Below are positions 18,834 to 35,090 of a DNA stretch of 36,533 nucleotides, in pieces. The notes below the pieces were generated by a model. That model worked only from the letters and a program-made list of their open reading frames with translations. It made no database searches and was not told the DNA's origin. Source of the stretch: a virus. The translations under genes were made by a program, and so were the position numbers. The stretch is taken from the UHGV virus genome UHGV-0135234; one strand, given 5' to 3'. Within the stretch, counting starts at the first letter, position 1. Each line of letters begins with the position of its first letter.

Positions 18834-21304
18834 TGGCTATCAGTTGGATCCAGCCCAGCTTTGCCGGTGGTGAGATTGGACCGTCGTTGTACGGTCGTAT
18901 CGACATGGCGAAGTACCAGGTGGCATTGCGCAAGTGCGATAACTTTATCGTGCGGCAGTATGGCGGCGTTGAGAATCGACCTGGTACGCGTTTTGTCGGT
19001 GCCGCCAAATACCCAAATCGGAAATGCCGCCTGATCCCGTTCCAGTTCTCGACGGTTCAGACCTATGCTCTGGAGTTCGGACACCAGTACATGCGCGTTA
19101 TCAAAGATGGTGCGTTGGTGCTGAACAGCAGCAATGTTATTTATGAAATTGCCACGCCATATACTGAAGCTGATCTGTTCCGAATTAAATTCACGCAAAG
19201 CGCCGACGTGCTTACGCTGGTTCACCCGGCATACCCGCCGAAAGAGTTGCGCCGATATGCTCATGACAACTGGCAACTGGTTGATGTGGTAACGAAGAAC
19301 GGGCCATTTGAAGATATCAATATTGACGAGTCAGTGACGGTTTATGCCAGCGCCAGCACCGGGACAATTACGTTAACGGCAAGCGCCTCTATTTTTGGCG
19401 CGGAGCAGGTAGGCAAATTGTTCTATCTGGAACAGCCTGCAGTGGATTCAGTGCCGGTATGGGAAACCAGTAAGAGTACGTCGATTGGCGATATTCGCCG
19501 TGCAGACAGTAACTACTATCGCGCCGTTACAGCAGGCAAAACAGGTACTTTGCGCCCTTCGCATACAGAAGGCACATCATGGGATGGCTGGGGCGGATCC
19601 GGTGATGATGATACTGGCATTGAGTGGGAATATCTGCACAGTGGTTTTGGCATTGCCCGTATCACTGCTGCAAATGGAACTACTGCAACTGCCGAGGTGA
19701 TTTCCTATATCCCTTCGCAGGTAGTTGGCGAGGATAATGCCAGCTATAAATGGGCTAAATATGCCTGGAACAGTGTTAATGGTTATCCTGGCACTGTTGT
19801 TTATTATCAACAACGTCTTTACTTCGCCGCATCGACTGCGTTCCCTCAGACTATCTGGGCCAGCCGTACCGGGGATTATAAGGATTTTGGCAAAAGCAAT
19901 CCTACGCAGGATGACGACAGAATTATCTACACCTATGCCGGGCGTCAGGTTAATGAGATCCGCCACCTGATTGATGTCGGTTCGCTGGTGGCACTGACTT
20001 CCGGAGGTGAGTACGTCATCACCGGCGACCAGAACAAAGTGTTAACCCCATCATCATTTGCATTCAGCTCTCAGGGATCAAATGGCTCTAGCAATGTCCC
20101 ACCAATTGCCGTGGCGAATATTGCTCTGTTCGTCCAGGAGAAAGGCAGTGTTGTCCGTGATCTGGCCTACTCATTCGATGTTGACGGCTATCAGGGGAAC
20201 GACCTGACCATCCTTGCCAATCATCTTTTTCAGAAGCACAGCATTGTTGACTGGTGCTTCTCTATTGTCCCTTACTCCAGCGCCTTCTGCATTCGTGATG
20301 ACGGTAAATTACTGGTGATGACCTATTTGCGTGATCAGCAGGTTTTTGCATGGGCACCACAATCCAGTACCGGAAAATATGAAAGCACATGCAGTATCAG
20401 CGAAGGAAATGAAGATGCGGTGTATTTCGTCGTTAACCGAACCGTTAACGGGCAAACAGTGAGATACATCGAGCGACTGTCCAGCCGTTTATTTACCAGC
20501 GATGAAGATGCTTTCTTTGTTGATTCTGGCCTTAGCTATGATGGAAGAAATACGTCTGACAGAACGATGACCATCACTGGTGGTTCTGGCGAATGGGATT
20601 ACCGCGCGGAATATACAATCAGTATTTCTGGTGGTGCGTACTTCACCAGTAGTGATGTCGGTGCGCAACTACAGTTCCCTTATACCGGAACTGATCCTGA
20701 TACTGGCGATGAAGTGTCAAAAGAATTACGTTGCGACATTATTTCTGTAACCAGCAACACCGCTGTAGTGGTTCGTGCTAACAGGAACGTCCCGCCATCC
20801 CTCAGGAATGTGGCCACCACGAACTGGCAGATGGCGCGCCGGGCATTTGGCGGCTTGTCTCATCTTGAAGGTCAGACCGTAAACATCCTCTCTGATGCGA
20901 ACGTGGAACCACAGAAAGTAGTTTCCGGAGGTGCCGTCACGCTGGAATCACCGGGGGCTGTAGTGCACATCGGCCTGCCAATAACTGCTGAATTCGAAAC
21001 ACTGGATATCAACATTAACGGACAGGAAACGCTGCTGGACAAAAAACAGGTGATCCCATCCGTTACTCTGGTTGTGAATGCCAGCCGCGGCATCTGGGCG
21101 ACTACGCCCGGCGGTAAATGGTACGAATATCCACAGCGTGAATTCGAGTTCTACGATGATCCTGTTGATGACGCTACCGGAAAAGTAGAAGTGAAACTGG
21201 ACAGTAACTGGGGCAAAAACGGACGTGTAAGAATCCGTCAGCTTGACCCGTTGCCGCTGTCTGTTCTTGCCGTTATTCCTCGTCTTACTGTTGGGGGATT
21301 CTGA
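18833..21304 (+). CDS. tail tube/nozzle protein (T7 gp12-like by size and synteny)
   Basis: 823 aa (T7 gp12 794 aa); ATGA-coupled to upstream gene. Confidence 0.6.
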   Translation: MAISWIQPSFAGGEIGPSLYGRIDMAKYQVALRKCDNFIVRQYGGVENRPGTRFVGAAKYPNRKCRLIPFQFSTVQTYALEFGHQYMRVIKDGALVLNSSNVIYEIATPYTEADLFRIKFTQSADVLTLVHPAYPPKELRRYAHDNWQLVDVVTKNGPFEDINIDESVTVYASASTGTITLTASASIFGAEQVGKLFYLEQPAVDSVPVWETSKSTSIGDIRRADSNYYRAVTAGKTGTLRPSHTEGTSWDGWGGSGDDDTGIEWEYLHSGFGIARITAANGTTATAEVISYIPSQVVGEDNASYKWAKYAWNSVNGYPGTVVYYQQRLYFAASTAFPQTIWASRTGDYKDFGKSNPTQDDDRIIYTYAGRQVNEIRHLIDVGSLVALTSGGEYVITGDQNKVLTPSSFAFSSQGSNGSSNVPPIAVANIALFVQEKGSVVRDLAYSFDVDGYQGNDLTILANHLFQKHSIVDWCFSIVPYSSAFCIRDDGKLLVMTYLRDQQVFAWAPQSSTGKYESTCSISEGNEDAVYFVVNRTVNGQTVRYIERLSSRLFTSDEDAFFVDSGLSYDGRNTSDRTMTITGGSGEWDYRAEYTISISGGAYFTSSDVGAQLQFPYTGTDPDTGDEVSKELRCDIISVTSNTAVVVRANRNVPPSLRNVATTNWQMARRAFGGLSHLEGQTVNILSDANVEPQKVVSGGAVTLESPGAVVHIGLPITAEFETLDININGQETLLDKKQVIPSVTLVVNASRGIWATTPGGKWYEYPQREFEFYDDPVDDATGKVEVKLDSNWGKNGRVRIRQLDPLPLSVLAVIPRLTVGGF

Positions 21305-21768
21305 TGATCGATGTTCAAATTATTCCCGCCACCGAAGAGCATCTTCAGATGATTTTGCCGGATGTTCGTCAGGCTGATATTGACGAACTGTATGCGGTAT
21401 CGCTGATGACTACCGAAGATGCGCTGCGTGTTGGTCTTCGCACTGCGACTATGGCCTGGTCAGGATTTGCGAACGGAGAACTGGTAACCATGTTTGGCGT
21501 ATCTCCGGCGTCAATGATCGGTGGCAATGGTACGCCCTGGCTGGTAGGAACCAGCCGTATTGAAAAATATCAGAAGACATTTCTGCGCCACTGCCGCCCT
21601 GTATTGCAGCAGATGCTGGCAGTTTATCCGCGCCTGGAAAACTACGTCGACGAGCGAAACCATGTTGCCAAAGCATGGCTGCACTGGCTTGGATTCAGGC
21701 TTGAAGAAGCCGCGCCTTATGGTGCTCTTGGTCTTAATTTCCACAGATTTCACATGGAGAGAAAATAA
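21304..21768 (+). CDS. internal virion protein (gp13 position)
   Basis: 154 aa; synteny only. Confidence 0.5.
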   Translation: MIDVQIIPATEEHLQMILPDVRQADIDELYAVSLMTTEDALRVGLRTATMAWSGFANGELVTMFGVSPASMIGGNGTPWLVGTSRIEKYQKTFLRHCRPVLQQMLAVYPRLENYVDERNHVAKAWLHWLGFRLEEAAPYGALGLNFHRFHMERK

Positions 21769-22313
21769 TGTGCGATCCGGTTATTGCTGGTGGCGCAATG
21801 CTCGCCATGAGTGGCATTCAGGCATACACCCAGTACCAACAGGGAAAGTATGCCTCGAAGGTTGCAGAAGCGAACGCAGATATAGCCACAGCTCAGGCAA
21901 ATGATGCAATAAACAGAGGTAACGCTGAAGCTGAGCAACGGCGCAGAGAGACCCGACAGCGGCTTGGTACACAGGCGGCGACAATGGGGGCTACCGGCGC
22001 TGATTTATCTACAGGTAACGCGCTGGATATATTTGGCGACACTGCCCAGTTTGGCGCTCTTGATTCTCTGACGACGGTGAATAACGCGCAACGCGAGGCT
22101 TACGGTTATCAGGTTCAGGCTGCCAACTATAAAGCAGAAGCCAGTTCAGCCCGTAAACAGGGGAATGTGGGAGCAGCAACAACATTGCTCACTGCGCCTC
22201 TGAAGGCATACGGTGCGTACCAGATGTTTGGTGGGACGTGGAGTCCGTTTACTCAAAGCACCCCTGCGCCAATCGGAGCAGCAGCAGGAACCAGATTACC
22301 CGGAGGATTATAA
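21768..22313 (+). CDS. internal virion protein (gp14 position)
   Basis: 181 aa; Ala/Gly/Gln-rich. Confidence 0.55.
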   Translation: MCDPVIAGGAMLAMSGIQAYTQYQQGKYASKVAEANADIATAQANDAINRGNAEAEQRRRETRQRLGTQAATMGATGADLSTGNALDIFGDTAQFGALDSLTTVNNAQREAYGYQVQAANYKAEASSARKQGNVGAATTLLTAPLKAYGAYQMFGGTWSPFTQSTPAPIGAAAGTRLPGGL

Positions 22314-24826
22314 TGCCAGTCGTACCAACAGTATCCGGACGTCAGGTTGAGAGCCGTGGAGTTCAGTCAGCAGGCTTGCAGACGTTTTCTCAGCCAGGTA
22401 TTGGTGATGCTTTTGTTCGGGCAGGGGCAGAGGCAATTGATGTTTTGGGGCAGGCAAAACAGCGTGCCAATATTGCCTTGGCTCAGGAGGCATCTCTTAA
22501 CCTCAGTCAGATAAGCAGTGATTTGCTGAATAATCCTGAAACAGGATTGCTTAACCTGAAAGGGAAAAATGCTATTGGAAAAGGCCATGAGTATACGCAG
22601 CAGTTTGATGCTCAGGTCGAACAATTGGCTATGTCGCTGCCGGATGAACAGGCTCGTAATGCTTTCATGCAGCAGGCGCAGCAGCAGCGCATTCAGTTCA
22701 CTACGCAGGCCGGGCGACACGAGATAGGGCAAATTAATGCCTACGAAGAAGGCCAGTTTCAGGCGACACTGCTGAACAATGGTAAAAATGCCGCAGCATT
22801 GTATGGCGACAACGCCGCATACGTATTGGCTAACAAACAAACTTTCCAGCAAATTGAGGAGTACGGTGTTGCACATGGCTGGAGCAACGAGCAAATCCAG
22901 GCCAAGAAAATCGAGTTTAAAGAGAAGGTTGCTGATGCTGCATTGTCCCAGTGGTCGGCAAACAATGCGACCGCATTCATCCAAAGTAATGGCGAGTTAA
23001 GTGATACTGCTGCTGGAGCTCGCCGTGCTGTAGCAGATAGTGACTCTTCCGAGCGTGCCCGTGGCATACGCAACAATAACCCAGGAAATCTCGAATACAG
23101 CAAAACTAATCCGTGGGTAGGCCAGACCGGTGATGATGGTCGATTTGCTAAATTCGAAACACCTGAACACGGGATTCGTGCATTAGGGCGGAACCTGATG
23201 TCGTATCAGAGGCAGGGTATTGATACCGTCAGCGAGATAATTAATCGCTGGGCACCGCCTGCTGATAAAAATGACACTATGTCGTATATCAAAGCAGTGT
23301 GCGAACAACTTGGCGTTTCTGCTGATGAGCCTCTCGATGCATCTAATCCTGATACCCTGAAGGCGCTTTGTGCAGCCATTATCCATCATGAGAACGGTAG
23401 CCAGCCATACAGTGATCAGCAGTTAACTGCTGGTGTCAGTGCAGCACTTGGTTTATCAACAATTCCAACCAACACCAAACGCTATACCGGTAATGCAGCA
23501 TTCGATGCGGCATCTCCTGAGGCGCAGGCAAGTTTTATGCGACAGGCGGATCAACTGCGTCGGCAGCAGCAGGCTGAATATAAAACGATGATTGACAGCC
23601 AGGTTCGCGATGCGACAGCTGCGTATATGCGTGGCGTTGAATTTCCTAACCCACCTGGTGAGGCTGATTTTATTGCAGCTTATGGAGTAAGAGAAGGAAA
23701 CCTGCGATATACCGAGTTCAGAAATACGCAAATCGCCGGACAGTATATAGGCTCTTTCCGCAACATGCCGACAAGCAGCATTACAGCATATGTTGAGCAA
23801 TTACGCCCGGATACTGGTGAGACAGGGGAGGGTTATGCGGCACGAGCCGCTCTTTATGACAACGTTGTGTCGGCTGCAAGTCAGGTGATAAAGCAGCGAC
23901 AGGCTGATCCTGTACAGTTCTCTCTTGCCGCCGGACAGACAAAGCCTATCGACATGAGCAATAAGGATAACTTTGGACAGAGCGTTGCCTTGCGTGCTGC
24001 TCAGGTCAGTGACCTTGCTAAGTCATATGGCACTCCACTGACGTTCTTTTCCAAAGACGAGGCCAATCAGATCGGTGTTTTCTTTCGTGATGCGCCCGTT
24101 TCCCAACAGGCAGCATATCTCGATACCATCAGGCAGAGCACTGGTGGTGGGCAGGTGTATATGTCAGCACTACAGCAGATCAGTGCCAACGCTCCATCTG
24201 CTGCCGTTGCCGGGATACTGATGGATAAGCCAGGTGGTATTTTGGCAGAAAAAAACTGGTTTAATCCGGATGTTTCCGTGTCTCCTGAAACCGCTGCGCA
24301 GACAATTCTTGCTGGAGCGGCGGCTCGTAAAGGTACTGATGATGCGAAAGGTATTCCGATGCCTAAAGATGCTGATCTTCGCCTTGAGTTTTCTGACATG
24401 GTGAAGGATGCATTTGCTGGTGACGCTCAGGGGGCATCAATGGCATACGAGATCGCAAAGGATTATTACGCTGGTGTGATGGCGAAAAAAGGCGTGGTAT
24501 CAGGCGAAATTGACAATGATGTCTGGAAACAGGCTGTTAACGTAGCTACAGGTGGCGTGCATGACTATAACGGAATGGGGAATGTCCTTTTGCCGTGGGG
24601 AATGTCTGCAGAGCAATTCGATAAGCAGGTTAATCAGGCTTGGAATGAACAAGTTGTCGGCTCCGGGATAAAAACACCGCCTGGTCAGTATGGTTTGCAA
24701 AGTTACGGCGATAGTCAGTACCTGGTGAAACTTGGTACTGGTTATCTGCTGAAAGATGATGGTTCTCCCGTTGTTCTTAATCTGACACAGAAACGTCAGA
24801 GATTCTCCGGAGATATTCCGCAATGA
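22313..24826 (+). CDS. large internal virion/ejection protein
   Basis: ORF 22238..24826; ATG at 22313 with GGAGG SD overlapping upstream stop; 837 aa; conserved block GIRNNNPGNLEY...WVGQ...RFAKF...GIRALGRNLMSYQRQG. Confidence 0.65.
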   Translation: MPVVPTVSGRQVESRGVQSAGLQTFSQPGIGDAFVRAGAEAIDVLGQAKQRANIALAQEASLNLSQISSDLLNNPETGLLNLKGKNAIGKGHEYTQQFDAQVEQLAMSLPDEQARNAFMQQAQQQRIQFTTQAGRHEIGQINAYEEGQFQATLLNNGKNAAALYGDNAAYVLANKQTFQQIEEYGVAHGWSNEQIQAKKIEFKEKVADAALSQWSANNATAFIQSNGELSDTAAGARRAVADSDSSERARGIRNNNPGNLEYSKTNPWVGQTGDDGRFAKFETPEHGIRALGRNLMSYQRQGIDTVSEIINRWAPPADKNDTMSYIKAVCEQLGVSADEPLDASNPDTLKALCAAIIHHENGSQPYSDQQLTAGVSAALGLSTIPTNTKRYTGNAAFDAASPEAQASFMRQADQLRRQQQAEYKTMIDSQVRDATAAYMRGVEFPNPPGEADFIAAYGVREGNLRYTEFRNTQIAGQYIGSFRNMPTSSITAYVEQLRPDTGETGEGYAARAALYDNVVSAASQVIKQRQADPVQFSLAAGQTKPIDMSNKDNFGQSVALRAAQVSDLAKSYGTPLTFFSKDEANQIGVFFRDAPVSQQAAYLDTIRQSTGGGQVYMSALQQISANAPSAAVAGILMDKPGGILAEKNWFNPDVSVSPETAAQTILAGAAARKGTDDAKGIPMPKDADLRLEFSDMVKDAFAGDAQGASMAYEIAKDYYAGVMAKKGVVSGEIDNDVWKQAVNVATGGVHDYNGMGNVLLPWGMSAEQFDKQVNQAWNEQVVGSGIKTPPGQYGLQSYGDSQYLVKLGTGYLLKDDGSPVVLNLTQKRQRFSGDIPQ

Positions 24827-26625
24827 GTTACTTTGGCCTTAATCCAGTAAACCAGAATCAGCAGCTTGACGAAGCAGCATCAAATCCAGCTGGCTTTAAC
24901 AGCGATGTTGGTTTTTTCGACAATGCTGTAGGAGCGGCATTGTCTGGTTTGTACTCCGGGCTGGTGGCAAAGCCAGATCAGTTGCTATGGGCAGGGATGG
25001 ATAAAATCGTATCCCCGATTGCTCAGTTTGTTAACGAAAACACCTCGCTCAATGATACTTCAGTTTCATACATTGCCGAGCAGAGAAAACTAGCAGAGCA
25101 GCAGGTTAAGCGGCTGACGCCTGATGCCGCGACAACTGGAACCGCTGGGCAGGTTCTTTATGGGTTGTTCGATATGGGCGGGCAGGCTGTTGTTGGTACA
25201 ACGCTCGGTGGTCCGGTCGGAGGTGCTGCGGCGGTAACTTCGCTACAGGGTTTTTCTGAGTTTGAACGGCTGACAGCACAGGGTGTTGATTTCAGGACGG
25301 CGCAGGAAGCGGGATTAGTGCAGGGCATTACTGCTGGTGCCGGAACGCTGATCCCTATAAGCCTCGGGTTACGTGCTGGTGGTGCGCTGGCGGAAGGTGT
25401 GGCGGCTCAGCTTGCACGGACGGGTGAAAGTTCAGTGCGACGCGCCGCAGCAACAGCAGTACGTGCAACGCCAGATATTGCCTATGCCGCAGGTACAAAT
25501 ATTGCGTTCGGTATGGCACAGCGTGGGCTTACTGCAAAAACGCTTCGTGATGGTGGCTATAGCGAAATGGCTAATCAGTATGATGTGTTGGATCGACAGG
25601 CAATTGCTATTGATGCTGTTCTTGGAGTGGCGTTTGGTGGTGTCGGCAGATTTATTAACTCTCGCGGCGAGTCTACAAGCGCACCAAATTTTTCACCAGT
25701 TGATGTCGATGCTGCACTGGCGGCGAATGCCGCTCATCATGCTGAAATTGATATTGCTCCCGGTGTGCCGATCAACGTGCTTTCGCGTAATTCGCACATT
25801 CAGGCTCTGCGAAAAGCCATGTCTGATGTTAGCCAGGGGAGACCTGTAGACGTTGCCAGCATTGTTGAGTCTGCATCTTTCAGTGAAATTCCTGGGCGCA
25901 AGAGTCTGCTTTCTCAGGCAGTTAATGAGGCTCTGTCATCTGTAGATGATGGAGTAACGGCGCGCGCTATAGAAAATCGGTTGCTTGAAGAACAGGCCGC
26001 GCAGCTTTTGCCGCGTGGCGATAGACAGGTTTACCAGTCTGAAATCGCTAATAGCCAACGAATTATTGAAAATCTCACTGAACAGCGCGCACAAATTCTT
26101 GCAGAAGAGCCAACCGGTAGCGGTAAAGCTTTGTCTCGTGCTCGATCAGATAAACAGGCCAGACTTCGCGATATTGATCAACGAATCCGGCAGGCACAAG
26201 AACGCCTGGAGTTTTCCCGTAACGCGTTGGCACCGCACGAGCCTGGCGGTCAGTTTTTTGAAGCTCGAGCAGAACTGGCACGACGACAGCAGGCAGAAAG
26301 TGAACTTAATGCTCAGGCTGTTTCATTCTATAAAACAGCAGAGGTCAGGACGCCAGACGAAGTAGCTCCTTTTGAGCCCGGTAAGATATTGCAACAGACA
26401 GAACAAAAAATGATGGCAGATCCGGCAGGAGATATTGATCTGCGTATAGCTGAAGACTCGCTGCTTGAATCTCCGGACATGATAATCACCGTGCTGGATG
26501 ATGATGGTAATCCACAATCGCGCAGTGCGCGTGAAGTACTGGATGAAGCGAACAGGGAAAGTGAGCAGGCAATACAGGATTCCAGCCTGTTTGATGTTGC
26601 TGTGGCGTGTTTCTTGAGAGGTTAA
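24823..26625 (+). CDS. large internal virion/ejection protein
   Basis: 600 aa; Gly/Ala-rich hydrophobic segments; ATGA-coupled. Confidence 0.65.
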   Translation: MSYFGLNPVNQNQQLDEAASNPAGFNSDVGFFDNAVGAALSGLYSGLVAKPDQLLWAGMDKIVSPIAQFVNENTSLNDTSVSYIAEQRKLAEQQVKRLTPDAATTGTAGQVLYGLFDMGGQAVVGTTLGGPVGGAAAVTSLQGFSEFERLTAQGVDFRTAQEAGLVQGITAGAGTLIPISLGLRAGGALAEGVAAQLARTGESSVRRAAATAVRATPDIAYAAGTNIAFGMAQRGLTAKTLRDGGYSEMANQYDVLDRQAIAIDAVLGVAFGGVGRFINSRGESTSAPNFSPVDVDAALAANAAHHAEIDIAPGVPINVLSRNSHIQALRKAMSDVSQGRPVDVASIVESASFSEIPGRKSLLSQAVNEALSSVDDGVTARAIENRLLEEQAAQLLPRGDRQVYQSEIANSQRIIENLTEQRAQILAEEPTGSGKALSRARSDKQARLRDIDQRIRQAQERLEFSRNALAPHEPGGQFFEARAELARRQQAESELNAQAVSFYKTAEVRTPDEVAPFEPGKILQQTEQKMMADPAGDIDLRIAEDSLLESPDMIITVLDDDGNPQSRSAREVLDEANRESEQAIQDSSLFDVAVACFLRG

Positions 26626-26630: not shown

Positions 26631-29105
26631 ATGAGACAGGAATGTATACAAGCGGTCCAGCAGGCGGCGCAGCGCACGTTAACGGCGCGAGAAATACAGA
26701 ACATTGAAGACCGCATTTATCGAAATATGCGCTCCATTGCTCGTGATGACCCGATGTCGTGGCGACAACTTTCCGAATCAGAACGGTTGTATCGTGCAGC
26801 ACAATTGGCATCTGAAGAATTACAGCGAGAAGCGGCATTAAAGAAACGTCGTGTGGCCCTCACTATAGCCGCACGTCAGAGATTGGATAAATTTATCAAT
26901 AGCTATCAAGGGGCTGATGGGAAACTTGGCGCTCTTAACCGTACTATTGCTTTTAATGCAGACGGTAAATCGAATTTCCTCTCTGTTGAATCCAGAACAA
27001 AAGCCACCCGTGATTATGCATTGAGTCAATTGCAGGAGGCATTCGAAGCAGTTGATCCTCGCTTTTTTGGTCTGTTTGAAGATGAAGCGGGCGTACGTGA
27101 CCTGGTATATGAAATGCGGGGGCAAAATACTGGCAATGCTAAAGCAAGAAAAGGTGCTAAGGCGTGGAGAGAAGTTACAGAGCTGCTGCGCCGCCGGTTT
27201 AATGATGCTGGTGGGGACATTGGCTATCTCGAAAACTGGGGGATCCCTCAACATCATTCTATGGAAAAGGTTGGGGCGGTATCAAAGGATAAGTGGGTTA
27301 GCGATGTTATAGGTAAGCTGGATCGCAAATATTATACCCGAGCCGATGGACAACTGATGAACGATGCCGAGTTGTCTGAATTTCTTGGAGAGGCTTATAA
27401 CACGATCGCTACTGGTGGGCTGAATAAGCTTACTGATACCGGAATGCGAATTTCCGGCGCACGTGCTAACCGTGGTAATGCATCACGACAGATACATTTC
27501 AAAGATGCAGATTCCTATCTGCAATATCAGCAACTTTATGGCGATCGCTCTCTATGGGAAATCATGGTCGGTCACCTGGAAGGTATCAGTAAAGATATTG
27601 CGCTGGTGGAAACATATGGCCCAAACCCCGATCATGTTTTCCGCTCCCTTCTTGATCAGGTTAAGGCAGAAACGGCAACAGCTAACCCGAGTAAAACCGG
27701 TAGCGTCGAGCGTCTGGCGAACAAAACAGAGAACTTGTACAACTTTATTTCCGGAAAAACACAGCCTGTAGCGAATCCGCACATCGCGCGATGGTCTGAC
27801 AATATCCGCAACTGGCTGGTTGCCAGCAGACTCGGATCCGCGTTGCTGTCATCGTTCTCTGATCTTGGAACCATGTATCTGTCTGCGAAGGTTACCAACC
27901 TTCCAATGAACCAGTTATTTCGCAACCAGCTTGAAGCTATGGACCCAACGAACCGTACAGAACTTGCGCGGGCGCGCCGCGCTGGCCTGGCGATGGAATC
28001 TCTACTTGGCAGCGTTAACCGCTGGGCGATGGATAATATGGGGCCGTCTGTGTCTCGTTGGGCGGCAACGGCGGTAATGCGTGCCAGTGGGCTTACAGCA
28101 TGGTCAGATGCGCACAAGCGCGCCTATGGCGTAACCATGATGGGAAGCCTGGGAGAAGTAGTGTCACGGACACCAGACCTTCGTAGCCTCGATGACTCTG
28201 ATTTTCGTATCCTGAAAAGCAAAGGGATTACTGACACAGACTGGAGCGTATGGAAGCTGGCGCAACAGGAGGACTGGGGGAACGGTAATAATACGATGCT
28301 GACACCGGAAAGCATTATGCGTATCCCTGATTCAGCAGTTAAACATCTTGGTGAGCCTGAACGCGTGAAATTTGAGGCAATGCGTAAACTGCTCGGTGCC
28401 GTAACTGAAGAAGTTGATATGGCTGTTATTACACCGGGCGCACGTGAACAGATGTTCGTAGGGTCTGGTCTTCAGCGTGGAACATGGAAAGGTGAATTAA
28501 CGAGAAGTGTTTTCCTGTTTAAATCGTTCCCTATCTCGGTAGTTATGCGTCACTGGCATAGAGCTATGGGGATGCCGTCTGCTGGTGGGCGTGCGGCATA
28601 TATAGCAACGTTTTTAGCAAGCACAACCATGCTTGGTGCTCTTTCCATGCAGATTACTGATCTTATTAATGGGAGAAATCCAAAAGAAATGACCGGTGAC
28701 AACATGGTTAAATTCTGGATAAATGCATTTTTAAAAGGTGGTGGGGCAGGGTTGTATGGTGATTTTCTTTTCTCTGACCACACCAGGTACGGGAGCGGCG
28801 CACTAGCGTCGATGCTTGGCCCGGTAGCTGGTCTGGTTGATGACGTAGTGAAGATTGCTCAGGGCATACCGTTAAATGCTGTGGAAGGGAAGAATGAGCA
28901 GACTGGTGGTGATCTGGTTAAGCTTGGGAAAGGTTTGATGCCTGGTGCGAATCTCTGGTACTTGAAGGCGGCTCTCGATCACATGATCTTTAATCAGATG
29001 CAGGAGTATTTTTCACCAGGCTATTTGCGTAAAATGGAGCAACGTTCGAAGAAAGAGTTTAACCAGACATACTGGTGGCGACCTCAGGATGTCACTCCGC
29101 AATAA
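26631..29105 (+). CDS. large internal virion/ejection protein
   Basis: 824 aa; last large protein of virion block. Confidence 0.65.
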   Translation: MRQECIQAVQQAAQRTLTAREIQNIEDRIYRNMRSIARDDPMSWRQLSESERLYRAAQLASEELQREAALKKRRVALTIAARQRLDKFINSYQGADGKLGALNRTIAFNADGKSNFLSVESRTKATRDYALSQLQEAFEAVDPRFFGLFEDEAGVRDLVYEMRGQNTGNAKARKGAKAWREVTELLRRRFNDAGGDIGYLENWGIPQHHSMEKVGAVSKDKWVSDVIGKLDRKYYTRADGQLMNDAELSEFLGEAYNTIATGGLNKLTDTGMRISGARANRGNASRQIHFKDADSYLQYQQLYGDRSLWEIMVGHLEGISKDIALVETYGPNPDHVFRSLLDQVKAETATANPSKTGSVERLANKTENLYNFISGKTQPVANPHIARWSDNIRNWLVASRLGSALLSSFSDLGTMYLSAKVTNLPMNQLFRNQLEAMDPTNRTELARARRAGLAMESLLGSVNRWAMDNMGPSVSRWAATAVMRASGLTAWSDAHKRAYGVTMMGSLGEVVSRTPDLRSLDDSDFRILKSKGITDTDWSVWKLAQQEDWGNGNNTMLTPESIMRIPDSAVKHLGEPERVKFEAMRKLLGAVTEEVDMAVITPGAREQMFVGSGLQRGTWKGELTRSVFLFKSFPISVVMRHWHRAMGMPSAGGRAAYIATFLASTTMLGALSMQITDLINGRNPKEMTGDNMVKFWINAFLKGGGAGLYGDFLFSDHTRYGSGALASMLGPVAGLVDDVVKIAQGIPLNAVEGKNEQTGGDLVKLGKGLMPGANLWYLKAALDHMIFNQMQEYFSPGYLRKMEQRSKKEFNQTYWWRPQDVTPQ

Positions 29106-29114
29106 GGAACAACA

Positions 29115-29528
29115 ATGAAGGAATTATTGCTGTTATCGGTATTTTTGATATCCGCTTGCTCGACATCCTATGATGTTTATGACGGTGTTGATAAGGCATA
29201 TTGCGACAAAGTTAAAATGGATTTTTCTCTTGCCAAGACGGCGAAGGATAGTTGTATTGATCACTACGTCAAGACTTATACCAAGCCAGCCTCATCGGCA
29301 TCTGATATTGCTGAAGGTGCTGTGTTTGAGTGTAACAAGGTGATATCCATCGCAGCGAGTTCTTCATACGATGCTGCTGTATGTGCAATGGCTGAAAGAA
29401 ACGGCATGTCAGTGCAAAAAATTAATAGCATGATAAGCAGTAATGACGAAGCCAAAATAAGAACTGATATCAGCTCGGTGAAAAAAGATGCCATGAACAG
29501 AGTTGTAAAATATCAGTCATCTTTATAA
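29115..29528 (+). CDS. lipoprotein (candidate superinfection-exclusion moron)
   Basis: 137 aa; signal peptide MKELLLLSVFLISAC with lipobox ISAC, Ser at +2; AT-rich; followed by palindrome and terminator. Confidence 0.6.
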   Translation: MKELLLLSVFLISACSTSYDVYDGVDKAYCDKVKMDFSLAKTAKDSCIDHYVKTYTKPASSASDIAEGAVFECNKVISIAASSSYDAAVCAMAERNGMSVQKINSMISSNDEAKIRTDISSVKKDAMNRVVKYQSSL

Positions 29529-29531
29529 GTC

Positions 29532-29543
29532 GTGACATGTCAC
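29532..29543. repeat. 12-bp palindrome GTGACATGTCAC (copy 2)
   Basis: Identical to 12021..12032; abuts terminator 29545..29568. Confidence 0.6.
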
Positions 29544-29544
29544 A

Positions 29545-29568
29545 GGCCGCTTTCGCGGCCTTGTTTTT
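29545..29568 (+). terminator. rho-independent terminator
   Basis: ggccgc-tttc-gcggcc followed by TTGTTTTT. Confidence 0.65.
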
Positions 29569-29728
29569 AACGAATGCCACCGCCACCCGGGCGGGAATCC
29601 GCAGAACGCCCACCGCAGCGGGAGCCGTCAGCAGCAGTGTCGCTGTCGTGCTGACAACGACCGGCAAAGGCCTGAGTTGAAGCTACCAGAGACAACAAAA
29701 CGAACAGTGCAGCAAATGCTTTTTTCAT
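29567..29728 (-). CDS. small secreted peptide (Sec signal peptide, 2 Cys, Gly-rich C-terminus)
   Basis: ORF 29567..29800; ATG at 29728 gives 53 aa MKKAFAALFVLLSLVASTQAFA|GRCQHDSDTAADGSRCGGRSADSRPGGGGIR; weak SD. Confidence 0.35.
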   Translation of the reverse strand: MKKAFAALFVLLSLVASTQAFAGRCQHDSDTAADGSRCGGRSADSRPGGGGIR

Positions 29729-29800
29729 TGTGAAATTTCCATCTATAAGCCACCTCAATGTGGCGTCAATGAGTGTAGCACTGACTTTTGTTTCGCCCAC

Positions 29801-29821
29801 AAAAAAGCCCGCAGCGCGGGC
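29801..29821 (-). terminator. rho-independent terminator after cargo gene B
   Basis: Minus strand gcccgc-gct-gcgggc followed by TTTTTT. Confidence 0.6.
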
Positions 29822-30261
29822 TATTCTTCTTCATCATTAAAAAGCGGATTGTTGTTTCCATCTGATGAAAGGAAAGGTATGTGTTCTCTTGAAAATCCAA
29901 CAATGACAATTTCATTATCATTTTTTGCATAATGAATGCATTCATTAGAATGCCTTCCGCCAGGGTTGAAATTTAAGTTAATGGTATAATTCTTAAATGT
30001 GTTTGGATACCATGTTGGCCCACAATGATAATGCCAATAATTCTCTTGCTCATAATTGTCTGAGCCGGGAATTTTATCATGGTTATCATCAACCCACGAG
30101 GGCTTGTTTTTTCCAACAAGCGCCCTTCCATTGGCAACATCCTCTAAAAAACTTTGTATGATTTTTATTTCATCATCAGTAAGGAAAGGTCCGTCTACAG
30201 CGAAAGGGGTGTTGCTTTCCCCATGTAGAAAACTATTAGATATTCTAATGTTAAACTTCAA
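29821..30261 (-). CDS. AT-rich cargo protein of unknown function (gene B)
   Basis: ORF 29821..30402 has no internal Met; CAGGAG SD + 6 nt + TTG at 30261 gives 146 aa (MKFNIRISNSFLHGESNTPFAVDGPFLTDDEIKIIQ...NYWHYHCGPTWYP...FNDEEE); upstream 47 codons of the long ORF use rare codons and overlap gene A. Start uncertain. Confidence 0.4.
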   Translation of the reverse strand: MKFNIRISNSFLHGESNTPFAVDGPFLTDDEIKIIQSFLEDVANGRALVGKNKPSWVDDNHDKIPGSDNYEQENYWHYHCGPTWYPNTFKNYTINLNFNPGGRHSNECIHYAKNDNEIVIVGFSREHIPFLSSDGNNNPLFNDEEE

Positions 30262-30281
30262 GGAAAACTCCTGATGTGCTT

Positions 30282-30449
30282 CTATTTGGAGCGAAATGCC
30301 GCCTTGAAGTCGCTGAAAGATGTTCCTGTCTGGTAAACCATATCCTTGTCGCGCTCTTTGCTTGCGCGGCCAAGCATAACTTTTCCAATGACATCCCAGC
30401 ATTGCTTGGCTTGTTCATTGTGCTGAGTACGATTTTTCAACGCTGTCAT
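30282..30449 (-). CDS. small protein (gene A), first gene of operator-controlled cargo operon
   Basis: 55 aa MTALKNRTQHNEQAKQCWDVIGKVMLGRASKERDKDMVYQTGTSFSDFKAAFRSK; AGGAGG SD 6 nt before ATG; host-like codon usage; not in ORF track (<60 aa). Confidence 0.4.
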   Translation of the reverse strand: MTALKNRTQHNEQAKQCWDVIGKVMLGRASKERDKDMVYQTGTSFSDFKAAFRSK

Positions 30450-30461
30450 ATCGCGCCTCCT

Positions 30462-30476
30462 TTACCTTTAAGGTAA
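30462..30476. promoter_or_regulatory. operator palindrome TTACC-N5-GGTAA between promoter and gene A
   Basis: ttacctttaaggtaa immediately upstream of SD. Confidence 0.55.
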
Positions 30477-30504
30477 TAGTACGCTATTCACCCACAGTCT
30501 GCAA
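30476..30504 (-). promoter_or_regulatory. putative promoter of cargo operon
   Basis: Minus strand -35 TTGCAG (30499..30504), 17 bp, -10 TACTAT (30476..30481), then operator. Confidence 0.45.
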
Positions 30505-30513
30505 TCTGTACAG

Positions 30514-30540
30514 AATTATTTAAAGGCACATCCCTGTGCC
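30514..30540 (-). terminator. terminator-like hairpin after Bro-N gene
   Basis: Minus strand ggcaca-ggga-tgtgcc followed by TTTAAATAATT. Confidence 0.4.
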
Positions 30541-30548
30541 GCCGCCCG

Positions 30549-31235
30549 TCAGAAGAACCCAGCCTTGTCGTTGATGTACTCCGCGTGGGTCTGGATATCA
30601 CGCAGGCATTTGCTCACACCAACAATGTAGCAGAACATGGTGGTCAGCTCCGCCGCCGCGCCCGATACGTCGTGCCCGTCTTCCTGTAACTGGTTCAGCA
30701 GATTCATCAGCAGTGAGTTCTCCGTCAGGCCGAGAACACCAGACGGAGAATGAATCAGGCTGCGGTAGCCGGGCTTCAGTGGGGCACTGTAGGTTTTGTT
30801 CTCTATCTTCATTGCCTGCATCACTGCTGATGCTGTGGCGTTGGCTACCTGGTCGGCAACTATCTTTATGCGTTCTTCCTGCGGGAGCGAGTTTTTAATG
30901 TAACTTCCGGTGCGGCGGATCTGAGGAAGAACCTCACCTGTAACCCATTTACGAAAGCGGTAGGGGATAGTGCCTGGTGTCACTGCGTCGCGGCAGCGGA
31001 GGATCAGTGTGTAGAGGCCTGACTCGTTGATAATATTGGTTTCACCTTGACGGCCTAAGTTAAATTTAGCCCTTTCATCATCATCAAGAGATTTTATTGA
31101 CATAGTGGGGTTTGTCAGTTGAAGAGCTTTAATAACGTCTTTGGCAACAAACCAAGGATTTCCATCAATAACAATGGCTCGAATGGTGGCTTCTGATTCA
31201 AAATGAAAAACAGATGGGGTTACGTTAGCAGTCAT
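30549..31235 (-). CDS. Bro-N domain antirepressor-like protein
   Basis: ORF 30549..31388; ATG at 31235 (MTANVTPSVFHFESEATIRAIVIDGNPWFVAKDVIKALQL... classic Bro-N N-terminus); AAGGTGA SD; upstream extension is a structured leader. Confidence 0.8.
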   Translation of the reverse strand: MTANVTPSVFHFESEATIRAIVIDGNPWFVAKDVIKALQLTNPTMSIKSLDDDERAKFNLGRQGETNIINESGLYTLILRCRDAVTPGTIPYRFRKWVTGEVLPQIRRTGSYIKNSLPQEERIKIVADQVANATASAVMQAMKIENKTYSAPLKPGYRSLIHSPSGVLGLTENSLLMNLLNQLQEDGHDVSGAAAELTTMFCYIVGVSKCLRDIQTHAEYINDKAGFF

Positions 31236-31388
31236 AGTGATCACCTTTGTAGTTAGGTTAATCACCACTACCGACGCCAATCGGTTGGTGGTGAACTGTG
31301 CAGGGTTGGCGTAACCGGCTACAAAGGACCCGGCGCACCTTTCGGTGCCCCCACACAGCCCACCATAGAATAGGTGCGCTTTACACAT

Positions 31389-31408
31389 AAAAAAACCGCT
31401 TATGCGGC
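31389..31408 (-). terminator. intrinsic terminator/attenuator in Bro leader
   Basis: Minus strand gccgc-ataa-gcggu followed by seven U. Confidence 0.45.
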
Positions 31409-31501
31409 ATATGTGCCTCTGTAGTAACCCGGGACGCCAATCCCGGCACTGGATTTTGCCAGTGCCCGATTACTATGGCACAAGAGGAGTGCGATGTAAA
31501 T

Positions 31502-31516
31502 TTACCGAAAAGGTAA
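31502..31516. promoter_or_regulatory. operator palindrome TTACC-N5-GGTAA
   Basis: ttaccgaaaaggtaa directly downstream of putative Bro promoter. Confidence 0.55.
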
Positions 31517-31544
31517 TAATAAACACTCTACTTGGTAATTGCAA
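31516..31544 (-). promoter_or_regulatory. putative promoter for Bro-N gene
   Basis: Minus strand -35 TTGCAA (31539..31544), 17 bp, -10 TATTAT (31516..31521); same architecture as gene A promoter. Confidence 0.4.
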
Positions 31545-31547
31545 ACC

Positions 31548-31805
31548 TTATCTGGTTTGTTTTCGTAATTGTTCGGCACAATAGTCGAGATGTGTTTGCA
31601 GATCCCGCATAGACATCTGTGAGCTGGTGACGTAGTTAATCAGTGCAGTCAGTTCGGCAAGTGGGCCATCGACATTAAATCCATCCTTATCGAGATCCCG
31701 GAGTAATTTCATCAAGTGCGATCCCTCCACCAGTGACCTGACGCCTCCCGGCGTGTGAATCCTTTCGGTAAATCCGTCTTCCAGTGGATAGTGATACTGC
31801 TGCAT
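31548..31805 (-). CDS. small antirepressor-domain protein, paralog of Bro C-terminal domain; LexA-box controlled
   Basis: ORF 31548..31823 (TTG); ATG at 31805 gives 85 aa with GGAG SD; aligns with C-terminus of 30549..31235 protein (IH(S/T)P.GV..L.E.S.LM.LL..L..DG..V.G..AELT...RD.QTH..Y). Confidence 0.55.
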   Translation of the reverse strand: MQQYHYPLEDGFTERIHTPGGVRSLVEGSHLMKLLRDLDKDGFNVDGPLAELTALINYVTSSQMSMRDLQTHLDYCAEQLRKQTR

Positions 31806-31826
31806 CTTATCTTCTCCATGCAATAA

Positions 31827-31842
31827 CTGTATATTTATACAG
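31827..31842. promoter_or_regulatory. LexA box (SOS operator) CTGTATATTTATACAG
   Basis: Perfect CTGT-N8-ACAG with AT-rich spacer; 10 nt upstream of SD of the 85-aa gene. Confidence 0.75.
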
Positions 31843-31881
31843 TATCAAATAATTTGTTTGCTATCCAGCACGTTTTGCAAA

Positions 31882-31896
31882 TTACCCGAAAGGTAA
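31882..31896. promoter_or_regulatory. operator palindrome TTACC-N5-GGTAA
   Basis: ttacccgaaaggtaa between 85-aa gene and divergent tailspike. Confidence 0.55.
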
Positions 31897-32000
31897 TATC
31901 TATTCGTATTTACAGTCTTTCTATCCATATGTGGTTTTTCAGGTAATAGAATAACCAGATATGCGGCGCAACGGGTGCTGCGACTATCTGGAGATTTAAC

Positions 32001-34190
32001 ATGACGGTCTCAACCGAAGTTGACCACAACGAATACACCGGTAACGGCGTTACGACATCATTTCCGTATACCTTCCGTATTTTCAAAAAAACCGACCTGG
32101 TTGTTCAGGTGTCTGACCTGAACGGGAACGTAACAGAATTGGTTCTGGATACCGGTTATAAGGTAACTGGAGCGGGCACTTATAGTGGCGGTGAAGTGGT
32201 TCTCCCGTCGCCGCTTGCTGCTGGCTGGCGAATTACGATAGAGCGTGTGCTTGATGTGGTGCAGGAGACTGATCTTCGCAATCAGGGAAAATTTTTCCCC
32301 GAAGTTCATGAAGATGCATTTGACTACCTGACGATGCTGATCCAGCGATGTTTTGGGTGGTTCAGACGTGCATTGATGAAACCATCTTTGCTTGCAAAAT
32401 ATTACGATGCAAAGCAAAACAAAATTTCTAACCTTGCAGATCCATCATTTGAGCAGGACGCTGTAAATAATCGCTCAATGCGTAATTATGTCGATGCTGC
32501 AATCGCCGGGGTTGTTGGTGGTTTTGGTTGGTTTATACCGTCAGGAAGCGGGGCAAGACAACGAACATTTCAAAGCAAAATGAGGGATATAATTTCTCCT
32601 TGTGATTACGAAGATAATATTTTTATGATTAAGGAGTTGATATCCAAAGGCAAAAATGCCGCTGTTTTTAACTCATATTATACTTTTGTTATTACTGTTG
32701 GCGAATGGGGTGATTTCCCTACACTCAAAGATGCAATCATTGCAGCCCAGTCAATGAGACCTATGTGGGATGGTGGTAATGCTTTCTGCGAAATAAGAAT
32801 TAAGACCGGGCATATTATCAACTATCAAATTGAATTCAGTTCAGGTGTTGATTTGTCTTGGATTAAAATAACATCAGAAGACTCAGTGGTTTTCTCTGAC
32901 ACTCGTTTGTTTACTAAAATCGTTAGAACGTATTACGAATACAAGTATTTATTTTACATTTGCGATGCAGCAAAAAGTCCTGTATTTGCTATTCAGATCG
33001 AAGAAAATAGAGATGATAGCGATGTTTGTGCATTTATTGTAACTCAAAAAGCTGAACTTAATTTCTATCCGTATTCAGGTGCTCGAAAGTTCTACGTTGG
33101 AATTCATGGTAGTTTTGGTGCAAAAATTAGTGCATATCATACCGGATGTGCTCCTGATGAGGAAAGTGTTGCTGCATATATGCCAGAAGGGTATTACGTA
33201 TGTGATTTTTCTTATAGCAGATACTCTTCCCTGCAACTGGTAAATAATGTCAAGGCATCAATGCCTGTAAGCAAGTTTGAACGGTGCACAGAGAGTACGG
33301 TTGCGTCAGTTAATTGTATTTATAATGTTAAAGCAGATTTTCAGGGGTCAAGTGCAAGCTATTGTTATATAGGATGGAATGTAAGAGATGGTTCAAATGT
33401 TAATATACGCGACCATAAAACTATACATTGCTCATATCGTGGATTAACCTGCATTCATACAGCATATGTTGATGCAAGACGACATGACGTTGAAGAAAGT
33501 GATGCAGAAACAAGTGGTAAAGTCCTTGAACCAAATATTGAAAAAGGTTTTTATGGATGTGCACTTGGTGTGCGTATTGATGGTGCGGGTTGCGTTGATG
33601 TTGCTGGTAATGATATGCGCAATTGTGGAACAGCCGTTAATGCAGACACTGGTGCTGTTATTTCAGGAAAGGCTGTAGATATCTCAGGGGCTGAGCTGGG
33701 ATTTGATTGCCATGCAGGAGCATCTGTTAATTTTCCAAGGCTATGGGGTACAGATATAAAAAAATTAATGCACCTCCAAGATGGTGTAAGGTTTAACTCT
33801 AATATTTGTCATGTATTTGGTGCAAATCCCACAAAAGATATTAGATGGATTGATGTAGAGAGATCTGAAGCTTCTTTTATGAATGCAACGCTGGATGCAG
33901 ATTCAGGATTTATTGCCGACTGTGGTAGTAGGATAACCATTGAAGGAAGTAAAGTTAAAAACCAAACAATAAGAAGTTTTTTTGGATCATATGTGGCTAT
34001 AAATAATACTGTTGCTGACAGAACTTATTCAGATATAGCCGATGTTCCGCAGTTGACTATTAGTGGAGGATCTTTTATTTCTGCTACAGGATATTCTAAT
34101 TCTGACTCCAGCCCTCTGAGGTTGAGCACAACACGAAATACACTTGGCGTTGGAGGAGCCATATTTTCAACCAATGGGGAAGTTTCATGA
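32001..34190 (+). CDS. tailspike/tail fiber with T7 gp17-like N-terminal adaptor and AT-rich C-terminal receptor-binding domain
   Basis: 729 aa; N-terminal about 130 aa matches podovirus tail-fibre N-domain pattern; composition becomes AT-rich from about 32450. Confidence 0.8.
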   Translation: MTVSTEVDHNEYTGNGVTTSFPYTFRIFKKTDLVVQVSDLNGNVTELVLDTGYKVTGAGTYSGGEVVLPSPLAAGWRITIERVLDVVQETDLRNQGKFFPEVHEDAFDYLTMLIQRCFGWFRRALMKPSLLAKYYDAKQNKISNLADPSFEQDAVNNRSMRNYVDAAIAGVVGGFGWFIPSGSGARQRTFQSKMRDIISPCDYEDNIFMIKELISKGKNAAVFNSYYTFVITVGEWGDFPTLKDAIIAAQSMRPMWDGGNAFCEIRIKTGHIINYQIEFSSGVDLSWIKITSEDSVVFSDTRLFTKIVRTYYEYKYLFYICDAAKSPVFAIQIEENRDDSDVCAFIVTQKAELNFYPYSGARKFYVGIHGSFGAKISAYHTGCAPDEESVAAYMPEGYYVCDFSYSRYSSLQLVNNVKASMPVSKFERCTESTVASVNCIYNVKADFQGSSASYCYIGWNVRDGSNVNIRDHKTIHCSYRGLTCIHTAYVDARRHDVEESDAETSGKVLEPNIEKGFYGCALGVRIDGAGCVDVAGNDMRNCGTAVNADTGAVISGKAVDISGAELGFDCHAGASVNFPRLWGTDIKKLMHLQDGVRFNSNICHVFGANPTKDIRWIDVERSEASFMNATLDADSGFIADCGSRITIEGSKVKNQTIRSFFGSYVAINNTVADRTYSDIADVPQLTISGGSFISATGYSNSDSSPLRLSTTRNTLGVGGAIFSTNGEVS

Positions 34191-34483
34191 TTAAGAGCAT
34201 TGATGTCACTCCATTTCTTCACTCGCTTTGCGCTTTTGTGGCTCAGGTACTGGTTGGTATTTTTACCGGAAACTGGGCTTACGGTGCGATAGCCGGTTGT
34301 ACGTTCTTCATTGCGCGTGAACACACCCAGGCAGAATATCGCTGGATAGAAAAGTTTGGGAAAGGGAAACGTATCAACATGCCGTGGTGGGGAGGTTTTG
34401 ATCCACGCGTGTGGGATGTGGGAAGTCTGTTGGATTTTGCTGTTCCTGTTGTTTTTTGTTTTTGTGTTTATTTCTCTATTTGA
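34187..34483 (+). CDS. small membrane protein (2 predicted TM segments)
   Basis: 98 aa; ATGA-coupled to tailspike stop; hydrophobic segments near both ends. Confidence 0.45.
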   Translation: MIKSIDVTPFLHSLCAFVAQVLVGIFTGNWAYGAIAGCTFFIAREHTQAEYRWIEKFGKGKRINMPWWGGFDPRVWDVGSLLDFAVPVVFCFCVYFSI

Positions 34484-34685
34484 CTGCTACCGCGCCATTA
34501 AATGGTGCGGTATTCAACCTGCTCTTCACTGTTTGTTTCTTCAGAGTCATGTAAAAGGTGAGCTTTATTCTCGGCATGAAAAACAGGGAATTGACGATGT
34601 TAAAGTAACAAAAAACCATAAATGGTTTATTATGCGTAATGCTTTACTGTTCAGGAGGTTGTTATGCATATAAACGGTGGAAAAC

Positions 34686-35090
34686 ATGTCAGCTCAACTA
34701 ACCAGTGAAACTTTAAATCAGTGGCTTAGCATGAGTTCTCTGGCGGCGGTGATAGCAGGAGTTCCTCCTGAGGTTGCTTTGGGTGCTTTGGCTGGAGCGG
34801 TAATTTTTGTTACCTCTGCAGTAGAGTACCCCATCCGTCGCCGGGTGCTCCTGTCGATGCTCAGCTTTCTTTGCGGCCTTCTCTTTTACAAACCAGCAGC
34901 ATCAATTCTTATCGGCATAGCCAGCCTGATCCCTACCATCACGCAGGACTCTTTTGAAAAAGGGATTGTTTTCTCTGCAGGCGCATTCGTGTCAGCAATT
35001 GTCGCTGTGCGTATTGGTATATGGCTCTATCACCGTTCCGATAATCCACGCGAGTTAATTCCGGGGAGAAAAGACGATGGTAACGCATGA
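34686..35090 (+). CDS. holin-like membrane protein
   Basis: ORF 34677..35090 (GTG); ATG at 34686 with GGTGG SD; 3-4 predicted TM segments. Confidence 0.5.
   Translation: MSAQLTSETLNQWLSMSSLAAVIAGVPPEVALGALAGAVIFVTSAVEYPIRRRVLLSMLSFLCGLLFYKPAASILIGIASLIPTITQDSFEKGIVFSAGAFVSAIVAVRIGIWLYHRSDNPRELIPGRKDDGNA

Follow-up and report, generated by a model that had tools for sequence, protein, structure and literature searches.

A predicted peptidoglycan-cleaving domain of the Enc34/P5 type within an 837-residue putative ejection protein of a phiV10-like phage

A 36,533-nucleotide stretch of the virus genome UHGV-0135234, which is the window analyzed here, carries at positions 22313 to 24826 (+ strand) a gene for an 837-amino-acid protein. 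As judged from sequence matches and a structural model, amino acids ∼249–381 of this protein are a domain of the Enc34 ORF39/BSPM4 M4Lys/PM2 P5 family, which is PHA02564 in the CDD database. The reading that we favor, with a probability of about 80%, is that this is a peptidoglycan-cleaving glycosidase domain in a virion ejection protein, which would act at genome entry. This reading draws on the family membership, the predicted fold, the conserved groove residues, the operon position of the gene, and the interchangeability of the domain with other enzymes in related proteins. As a virion-associated peptidoglycan hydrolase domain from a family that has been described before, the feature is ordinary, already known, and largely anticipated by existing annotation. 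What the annotation gains is the assignment to the Enc34/P5 type rather than to SLT, and to an ejection protein at the gp15 position rather than to a "head protein."

The gene and its central domain

The features of the gene are given below with their coordinates in the window; the structure models were made with AlphaFold2 (AF2), and their confidence is expressed as the predicted local distance difference test (pLDDT).

22302..22307, +, ribosome-binding site GGAGGA, read from the sequence
22313..24826, +, whole gene of the 837-residue virion/putative ejection protein, orthologue of phiV10 gp18 and epsilon15 gp15, at the T7 gp15 position
22418..22996, +, N-terminal helical module (amino acids ∼36–228), AF2 helices with pLDDT 80–92
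22997..23056, +, flexible linker forming the module boundary (amino acids 229–248), pLDDT <50 for amino acids 229–245
23057..23455, +, predicted peptidoglycan glycosidase domain of the Enc34/M4Lys/PM2-P5 type (PHA02564; amino acids 249–381), from sequence and model matches
23063..23098, +, loop motif GIRNNNPGNLEY (amino acids 251–262), the N-terminal signature of the family, from alignment
23249..23251, +, Trp313, equivalent of Enc34 Trp79, a proposed substrate-positioning aromatic residue (alignment to 7q47; role from PMC8943055)
23285..23287, +, Tyr325, equivalent of Enc34 Tyr95 (alignment to 7q47)
23390..23392, +, Glu360 in HHENGS, equivalent of Enc34 Glu131, proposed to be catalytic (alignment to 7q47)
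23495..24790, +, C-terminal, mostly helical module (amino acids ∼395–826) with a small beta-rich end, AF2 pLDDT mostly 85–94 and module mapping

Translation showed that positions 22313 to 24826 form one open frame of 837 codons and a stop, as the first-pass annotation of this DNA had reported, and the motifs that it had named, GIRNNNPGNLEY, WVGQ, and GIRA, were found at amino acids 251–290. The start codon of the gene shares bases with the stop codon of the gene before it (TAATG), which indicates translational coupling, and its stop codon likewise overlaps the start of the gene after it (ATGA). Nucleotide identity is 99% with the gp18 gene of Escherichia phage phiV10, a Uetakevirus, and, within the first 61% of the gene, ∼75% with epsilon15 gp15. 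By these sequence matches, the window is from a phiV10/epsilon15-like (Uetakevirus) phage. Near-identical copies of the protein are common in E. coli prophages, and one cluster of 837-residue proteins has 4311 member sequences. In RefSeq, phiV10 gp18 is labeled "head protein," with a note of likeness to PM2 structural protein P5, while in GenBank epsilon15 gp15 is labeled "putative lytic transglycosylase," from an HHpred match to SltB. PHROG 992 (phrog_992) matches the protein over its full length, and its central part also matches PHROGs labeled endolysin, tape-measure protein, and "tail injection transglycosylase." A Kyte-Doolittle scan found in the protein no hydrophobic segment of transmembrane strength and no signal segment.

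In a phmmer search against the PDB, amino acids 249–398 matched 9vvp_L, named "Gp29" (E 6e-38), and amino acids 249–367 matched 7q47_A, which is the Enc34 endolysin's catalytic domain (E 2.9e-17); the E-values from a PDB profile search were 8e-53 (9vvp_L) and 1e-42 (7q47_A). With amino acids 242–400 as the query, 1743 database proteins were found at E≤1e-5 after 90% clustering, and several of them were named "structural protein P5" in the source. No family was matched in Pfam-A by the whole protein or by amino acids 230–380, even at E≤1, and none in NCBIfam. Hence, a very widespread domain is without a model in the copies of these two collections that were searched, and the domain search of amino acids 230–380, which the first-pass annotation had proposed as a check, was negative in Pfam, while the PDB sequence search and Foldseek both matched an enzyme structure, 7q47. 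The homologues and PDB matches showed that the distinct block noted earlier at amino acids 255–340 is real, but its limits have to be widened. The homology span, the pLDDT values >90 across this span, and the disordered linker at amino acids 229–245 upstream place the domain at about amino acids 249–381, while the shorter range misses HHENGS and the putative catalytic Glu360 at the C-terminal side. The E-values, together with an entropy scan, also ruled out that the block is a chance motif or a low-complexity artefact.

The closest solved homologue, Gp29, was identified by a tblastn search with its aligned segment, which was 95%–99% identical to genes of Kayfunavirus (T7-like, Autographiviridae) annotated as internal virion protein, internal (core) protein, or "internal virion protein with endolysin domain." In Kayfunavirus IMM-002, this segment is the N-terminus of a 1296-residue gene product encoded after gp14 and a 760-residue gp15, and this position makes Gp29 the equivalent of T7 gp16 (internal virion protein D). 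In a BLASTP comparison, the protein of the window was 51% identical to the IMM-002 gp16 equivalent over 136 amino acids and had no similarity to it elsewhere. This match indicates that the domain family already sits, in a T7-like phage, where T7 gp16 carries its lytic transglycosylase.

Two members of the family have been characterized biochemically. The purified Enc34 domain lyses cells of E. coli, P. aeruginosa, and H. alvei whose outer membranes have been permeabilized (PMC8943055), while M4Lys degrades purified peptidoglycan with release of N-acetylglucosamine (GlcNAc), which suggests that it is an N-acetylglucosaminidase (PMC7143992). The constructs that degraded peptidoglycan in vitro were Enc34 ORF39deltaC and M4LysdeltaTMD (PMC8943055, PMC7143992). 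The catalytic role of Enc34 Glu131, assisted by Trp79 and Tyr95, was proposed from structural superposition (PMC8943055), and PM2 P5 and its Vinavirales relatives were modeled on 7Q47 with the same W/Y/E residues (Yutin et al., bioRxiv 10.1101/2022.07.18.500477). The domain type is very widespread, mostly as stand-alone proteins of 135–150 residues from bacterial genomes and metagenomes; it also occurs in Microviridae-like and Vinavirales records and in D3112/JBD-type Pseudomonas phages, and it has been reported in an effector of a type VI secretion system (PMC13340143).

The residues corresponding to those of Enc34 were examined in an alignment of 30 sequences and in 187 homologues, which comprised 64 large (≥500 amino acids) and 123 small proteins. 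The data showed that Glu360 was invariant in the 30-sequence alignment, and that it was kept in all 64 large homologues and in all 121 small ones in which this position could be counted (185/185). Tyr325 was also invariant in the alignment, and was present in 57/64 large and 122/123 small homologues. Trp313 was conserved in at least 90% of the aligned sequences, with an aromatic residue found at this position in 63 of the 64 large and in every one of the 123 small proteins. In the GIRNNNPGNLEY loop, G251, N256, G258, and N259 were invariant, while R253, N254, N255, and P257 were at least 90% conserved in the alignment, and the loop residues stayed nearly invariant across the 187 homologues. 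Further motifs in the domain are WVGQ (amino acids 268–271), GIRA (287–290), RWAPP (312–316), and HHENGS (358–363).

The AF2 model of amino acids 242–400 had a mean pLDDT of 88; it contains five long helices, one short helix at the N-terminus, and a loop that includes a beta-hairpin. This predicted fold fits the all-helical, lysozyme alpha-lobe-like fold of the family, which has about six helices and a long alpha1–alpha2 loop. When the domain model was compared with the PDB using Foldseek, 7q47 was the sole significant match, with an E-value of 3e-11 and a template modeling (TM) score of 0.75–0.76, while the next match had an E-value of 0.57. In BFVD, the model matched the equivalent region of many virion proteins of 500–1300 residues, one of which was an "Internal virion protein D."

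In the full-length AF2 model of the protein (pLDDT 82.6, predicted TM score 0.50), the N-terminus (amino acids 1–42) is predicted to be disordered and is followed by the helical N module; after a disordered linker comes the enzyme domain, and the chain closes with the large C module, which is helical and has a small beta-rich part at its end. The rest of the protein, which had earlier been described as low-complexity, is not so: SEG-like low-entropy windows covered only 40 of the 837 residues in the entropy scan, and the flanks, even though rich in Ala, Gly, Gln, and Ser, are conserved, confidently modeled, mostly helical, and have their own homologues. The N module is common to other PHROGs and to representatives with different central domains, while the C module is a conserved scaffold also present in relatives that carry SLT or GH108 domains. 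No solved relative of the N and C modules was found in a PDB profile search with the full-length alignment, and there was no Pfam or PDB sequence match outside the enzyme domain. Many E. coli prophage orthologues are 935 residues long, with an extra insertion of ∼104 residues at the linker preceding the enzyme domain. In one such variant (P0121), the insertion lies between amino acids 242 and 249 of the protein of the window (window positions 23036–23057), comprises residues 243–346 of the variant, and ends with YYVKGG; it gave no Pfam or PDB sequence match.

The central slot in related proteins and the gene neighborhood

A search of 1.84 billion representatives returned 12,662 relatives of the 837-residue protein, among which three modules could be separated, corresponding to amino acids 1–245 (N), 249–385 (enzyme), and 395–830 (C). 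The modules were mapped locally onto the best 150 of the 12,662 relatives, 121 of which had at least 600 residues. Among these 121 representatives, the P5-type domain was present in 59, while the remaining 62 contained the C module without a P5-type domain. A Pfam scan of the latter showed SLT in 29, a GH108 lysozyme domain in 16, and "Transglycosylas" in one; the others, several of which are shorter proteins, had no domain recognized by Pfam. Wherever its location was reported, the SLT or GH108 domain was in the same place, at about amino acids 235–385, just upstream of the C module. The gene order around one SLT-bearing variant (P0254) was identical to that in the window: capsid, then proteins of 88, 141, 207, 894, 123, and 206 residues, the 860-residue protein with SLT, proteins of 602, 824, and 101 residues, and the tailspike. 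Independent replacement of the block, in positional orthologues, by two muralytic domains that are unrelated and well established argues strongly, as contextual evidence, that the block cuts peptidoglycan. This three-way cassette exchange of P5-type, SLT, and GH108 domains in one ejection-protein scaffold is, next to the more precise family assignment, the modest added value of the analysis. The earlier suggestion of a cell-wall-degrading domain in a virion protein of a short-tailed phage is, hence, supported by the family, the predicted fold, the conserved residues, and the SLT and GH108 domains in the slot.

The genes surrounding the slot-bearing gene, and those that follow them in the window, are listed below.

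21304..21768, +, 154-residue product at the T7 gp13 position, internal virion protein (PHROG 308; synteny with Kayfunavirus IMM-002)
21768..22313, +, 181-residue T7 gp14-family internal virion protein (Pfam PF24072 T7_gp14, 31.2 bits versus a cut-off of 27; PHROG 418 "internal virion protein")
24823..26625, +, 600-residue product at the T7 gp16 position with several hydrophobic segments (Kyte-Doolittle maxima 1.2–1.7; PHROG 1145)
26631..29105, +, 824-residue virion structural protein, counterpart of epsilon15 gp17 (PHROG 684 "virion structural protein"; phiV10/epsilon15 annotation)
29821-30402, −, 193-residue product, where phiV10 annotates a Bro-N gene; no Pfam match
30549-31388, −, 279-residue product with a Bro-N domain, typical of anti-repressor-like proteins

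Farther upstream, genes for 201- and 823-residue products match PHROG tail (tubular) proteins and occupy the T7 gp11 and gp12 positions. The gene order is colinear with gp11-gp12-gp13-gp14-gp15-gp16 of T7 and Kayfunavirus IMM-002, which places 22313–24826 at the gp15 position. In the Foldseek comparison of the full-length model, the matches following 7q47 were 7k5c_A (E 4e-4, probability 0.99), from the T7 periplasmic tunnel, and 6yt5_A (E 1.5e-3), from the T7 gp15–gp16 core intermediate, and entry titles and chain lengths point to gp15 in both cases. Synteny suggests a gp15-like scaffold, to which the structural model lends weak support. The 600-residue product is a candidate inner-membrane ejection protein, and the place of its gene in the order recurs in the SLT-variant locus L004. 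The product of 21304–21768 had no Pfam match, and its epsilon15 counterpart, gp13, is labeled a GNAT acetyltransferase in GenBank (HHpred).

The two minus-strand genes separate the ejection operon from the tailspike gene (32001–34190), whose 729-residue product had no Pfam match. The structural genes of the window are ∼99% phiV10-like, while the tailspike region (29100–35100) is not; its best match is Escherichia phage HEMP4, with 98% identity over 89%. The O-acetyltransferase gene of phiV10 (oac) is apparently absent from the corresponding place in the window. Together, the tailspike region and the apparent absence of oac suggest that the phage is a mosaic relative whose O-antigen specificity differs.

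Proposed role and competing explanations

In the mechanism that we propose, the 837-residue protein would be packaged in the virion and, on adsorption, follow the gp14-like outer-membrane protein out through the tail. The enzyme domain would then cut murein glycan strands locally, with Glu360 as the putative acid catalyst and with Trp313 and Tyr325 positioning the sugar; by analogy with M4Lys, the bond cleaved is probably that between GlcNAc and N-acetylmuramic acid (MurNAc). The helical modules and the downstream hydrophobic 600-residue protein may subsequently build a trans-envelope conduit for DNA across the periplasm and the inner membrane. The steps from packaging to the conduit are taken from the T7 paradigm (PMC8954989); we infer the ejection of the protein, its enzymatic activity, and the timing of the steps. 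The slot itself could be seen as a freely exchangeable cassette, which holds a virion-delivered N-acetylglucosaminidase of the P5 type, with the specificity reported for M4Lys, an SLT lytic transglycosylase, or a GH108 muramidase; this proposal is tentative, being in our view possible rather than probable. We know of no podophage ejection protein for which an N-acetylglucosaminidase specificity has been demonstrated. If the proposal is true, then closely related phages breach the same wall by chemically different cuts.

Several observations speak against the proposed role. The activity of T7 gp16 is reportedly needed only when murein is highly cross-linked, and by analogy the domain of the window may likewise be conditionally dispensable; gp16 transglycosylase mutants of T7 reportedly show a delay at 20 °C and on stationary-phase cells. 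In Enc34, it was superposition and not mutagenesis that pointed to catalytic roles for Glu131, Trp79, and Tyr95 (PMC8943055). The likeness to T7 gp15 is weak, with TM scores of 0.15–0.18 and a root-mean-square deviation of ∼29 Å between proteins that are all-helical, and a BLASTP comparison with gp15 of Kayfunavirus IMM-002 found nothing, with the best E-value at 0.45; in general, gp15 homologues are recognized solely by their size and synteny (PMC8954989). It is also by analogy that we infer the 837-residue protein to be internal and ejected, and the placements of its epsilon15 orthologue differ. Secondary citations put gp15 either in the tail hub or central tube or in the core: gp15 and gp17/16 are described as parts of the epsilon15 packaging/injection device (PMC12391199 citing Guichard 2013), and gp17 is named as the epsilon15 core (PMC5850374).

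The block could also be an inactive relic with a structural role only, for example as a "wing" of the periplasmic conduit or as an anchor by which the conduit binds peptidoglycan, on the model of the T7 gp16 N-domain decorating the gp15 tunnel. The catalytic Glu of T7 gp16 is said to be dispensable under standard conditions, which counts in favor of this possibility. However, the proposed catalytic Glu is kept in all 64 large virion proteins, the groove residues are nearly invariant, and the SLT or GH108 domains in the slot of relatives pass Pfam thresholds. This conservation and the nature of the replacing domains suggest selection for enzymatic function and not for one particular shape, and we consider a relic very unlikely. 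On the other hand, the enzyme could be of another type, namely a GH23/SLT-type lytic transglycosylase producing 1,6-anhydro-MurNAc ends, as in the GenBank annotation of epsilon15 gp15. This would be in agreement with the true SLT domains found in the slot of relatives, and with the distant likeness of the Enc34 structure to phiKZ gp144 and MltC (PMC8943055). At the same time, there was no Pfam SLT match even at E≤1, and no GH23 structure was found at E<0.5 when the PDB was searched with Foldseek. Moreover, in the Enc34 fold the helices come in a permuted order and the beta-lobe is missing, the structure closest to it is that of a GH73 glucosaminidase (PMC8943055), and the GlcNAc released by M4Lys points to N-acetylglucosaminidase activity (PMC7143992). 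An SLT-type identity is, hence, unlikely.

Other explanations concern the place and time of action. The window has a separate complete lysis cassette at 34677–36483, with two holin-family genes, a GH19 endolysin, and an Rz spanin.

34677-35090, Phage_holin_8, a holin family, first of the tandem pair
35077-35385, Phage_holin_3_7, a holin family, second of the tandem pair, which precedes the GH19 endolysin and the Rz spanin
35375-36004, GH19 endolysin

The tandem holin-family genes (34677–35385) could form a holin/antiholin or a dual-holin arrangement. Because the cassette is complete and separate, the domain in the 837-residue protein is not needed as a lysis enzyme. The idea that it is the lysis endolysin, or a second one, acting from within late in infection as in Enc34 and BSPM4, could draw on the fact that the closest biochemically characterized homologues, Enc34 ORF39 and M4Lys, are lysis-cassette endolysins, and on the "endolysin" label of several PHROGs matching the protein. 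It is contradicted, besides the cassette, by the gene context and protein architecture: the gene is in the tail/ejection operon, translationally coupled to the T7_gp14-family gene, and the domain is embedded in a long protein with no transmembrane or signal segment, while the Enc34-type enzymes have ∼230 residues, with a transmembrane domain at the C-terminus. The endolysin identity was rejected on gene context, and we regard it as extremely improbable. The 837-residue protein could alternatively be a tail-hub or central-tube part of the adsorption apparatus, with the enzyme acting from the tail tip rather than from an ejected core protein, as would be consistent with the placement of epsilon15 gp15 in the packaging/injection device and with the assignment of the core to gp17 alone in the sources cited above. 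However, the genes for the 201- and 823-residue products at the gp11 and gp12 positions are likelier to encode the hub; also, the gene follows that of the T7_gp14 family, and the best non-enzyme PDB matches of the model are to T7 gp15. We judge a hub location to be rather improbable; it alters the location and leaves the enzymatic role unchanged.

These findings are of small practical value. The natural swap series of P5-type, SLT, and GH108 domains in one scaffold could serve to probe if genome delivery depends on the chemistry by which the wall is cut. The domain also belongs to a compact lysin family active on Gram-negative bacteria, which may be of enzybiotic interest.

Comparison with known systems

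The domain is homologous to those of Enc34 ORF39 (7Q47) and M4Lys, with 36% identity in the structural alignment, the same predicted all-helical fold, the RNNNPGN loop, the RWAPP and HENG motifs, and the Trp, Tyr, and Glu groove residues. It differs from them in its setting, because theirs are ∼230-residue lysis-cassette enzymes with a C-terminal transmembrane domain, while the domain of the window is inside an 837-residue structural protein that has no membrane anchor and is encoded in the ejection operon. The P5 proteins of PM2 and Vinavirales belong to the same domain family, and the GenBank note on phiV10 already cites PM2 P5; they are, however, small proteins of tailless membrane-containing phages and not ejection proteins of podophages. 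Kayfunavirus Gp29 (9VVP chain L, 1295 amino acids) is the most similar solved example, since it, too, is a podophage ejection protein with this domain; it is at the gp16 position and carries the domain at its extreme N-terminus, while in the window the domain is internal in a protein at the gp15 position.

In T7, the gp16 N-domain and the gp15 tunnel (7K5C, 6YT5) likewise combine a muralytic domain with ejection proteins encoded in the same operon order after gp14, but the T7 enzyme is of the GH23/SLT type and is carried by gp16, not by gp15. Muralytic activity is known to swap between gp15-like and gp16-like ejection proteins of podophages, for example in K1E gp35 (PMC8954989). The gp35 proteins of K1E and K1-5, which are at the SP6-like gp15 position and have lysozyme activity, are thus a precedent for a gp15-like muralytic protein (PMC8954989), a likeness drawn from their description in that review.

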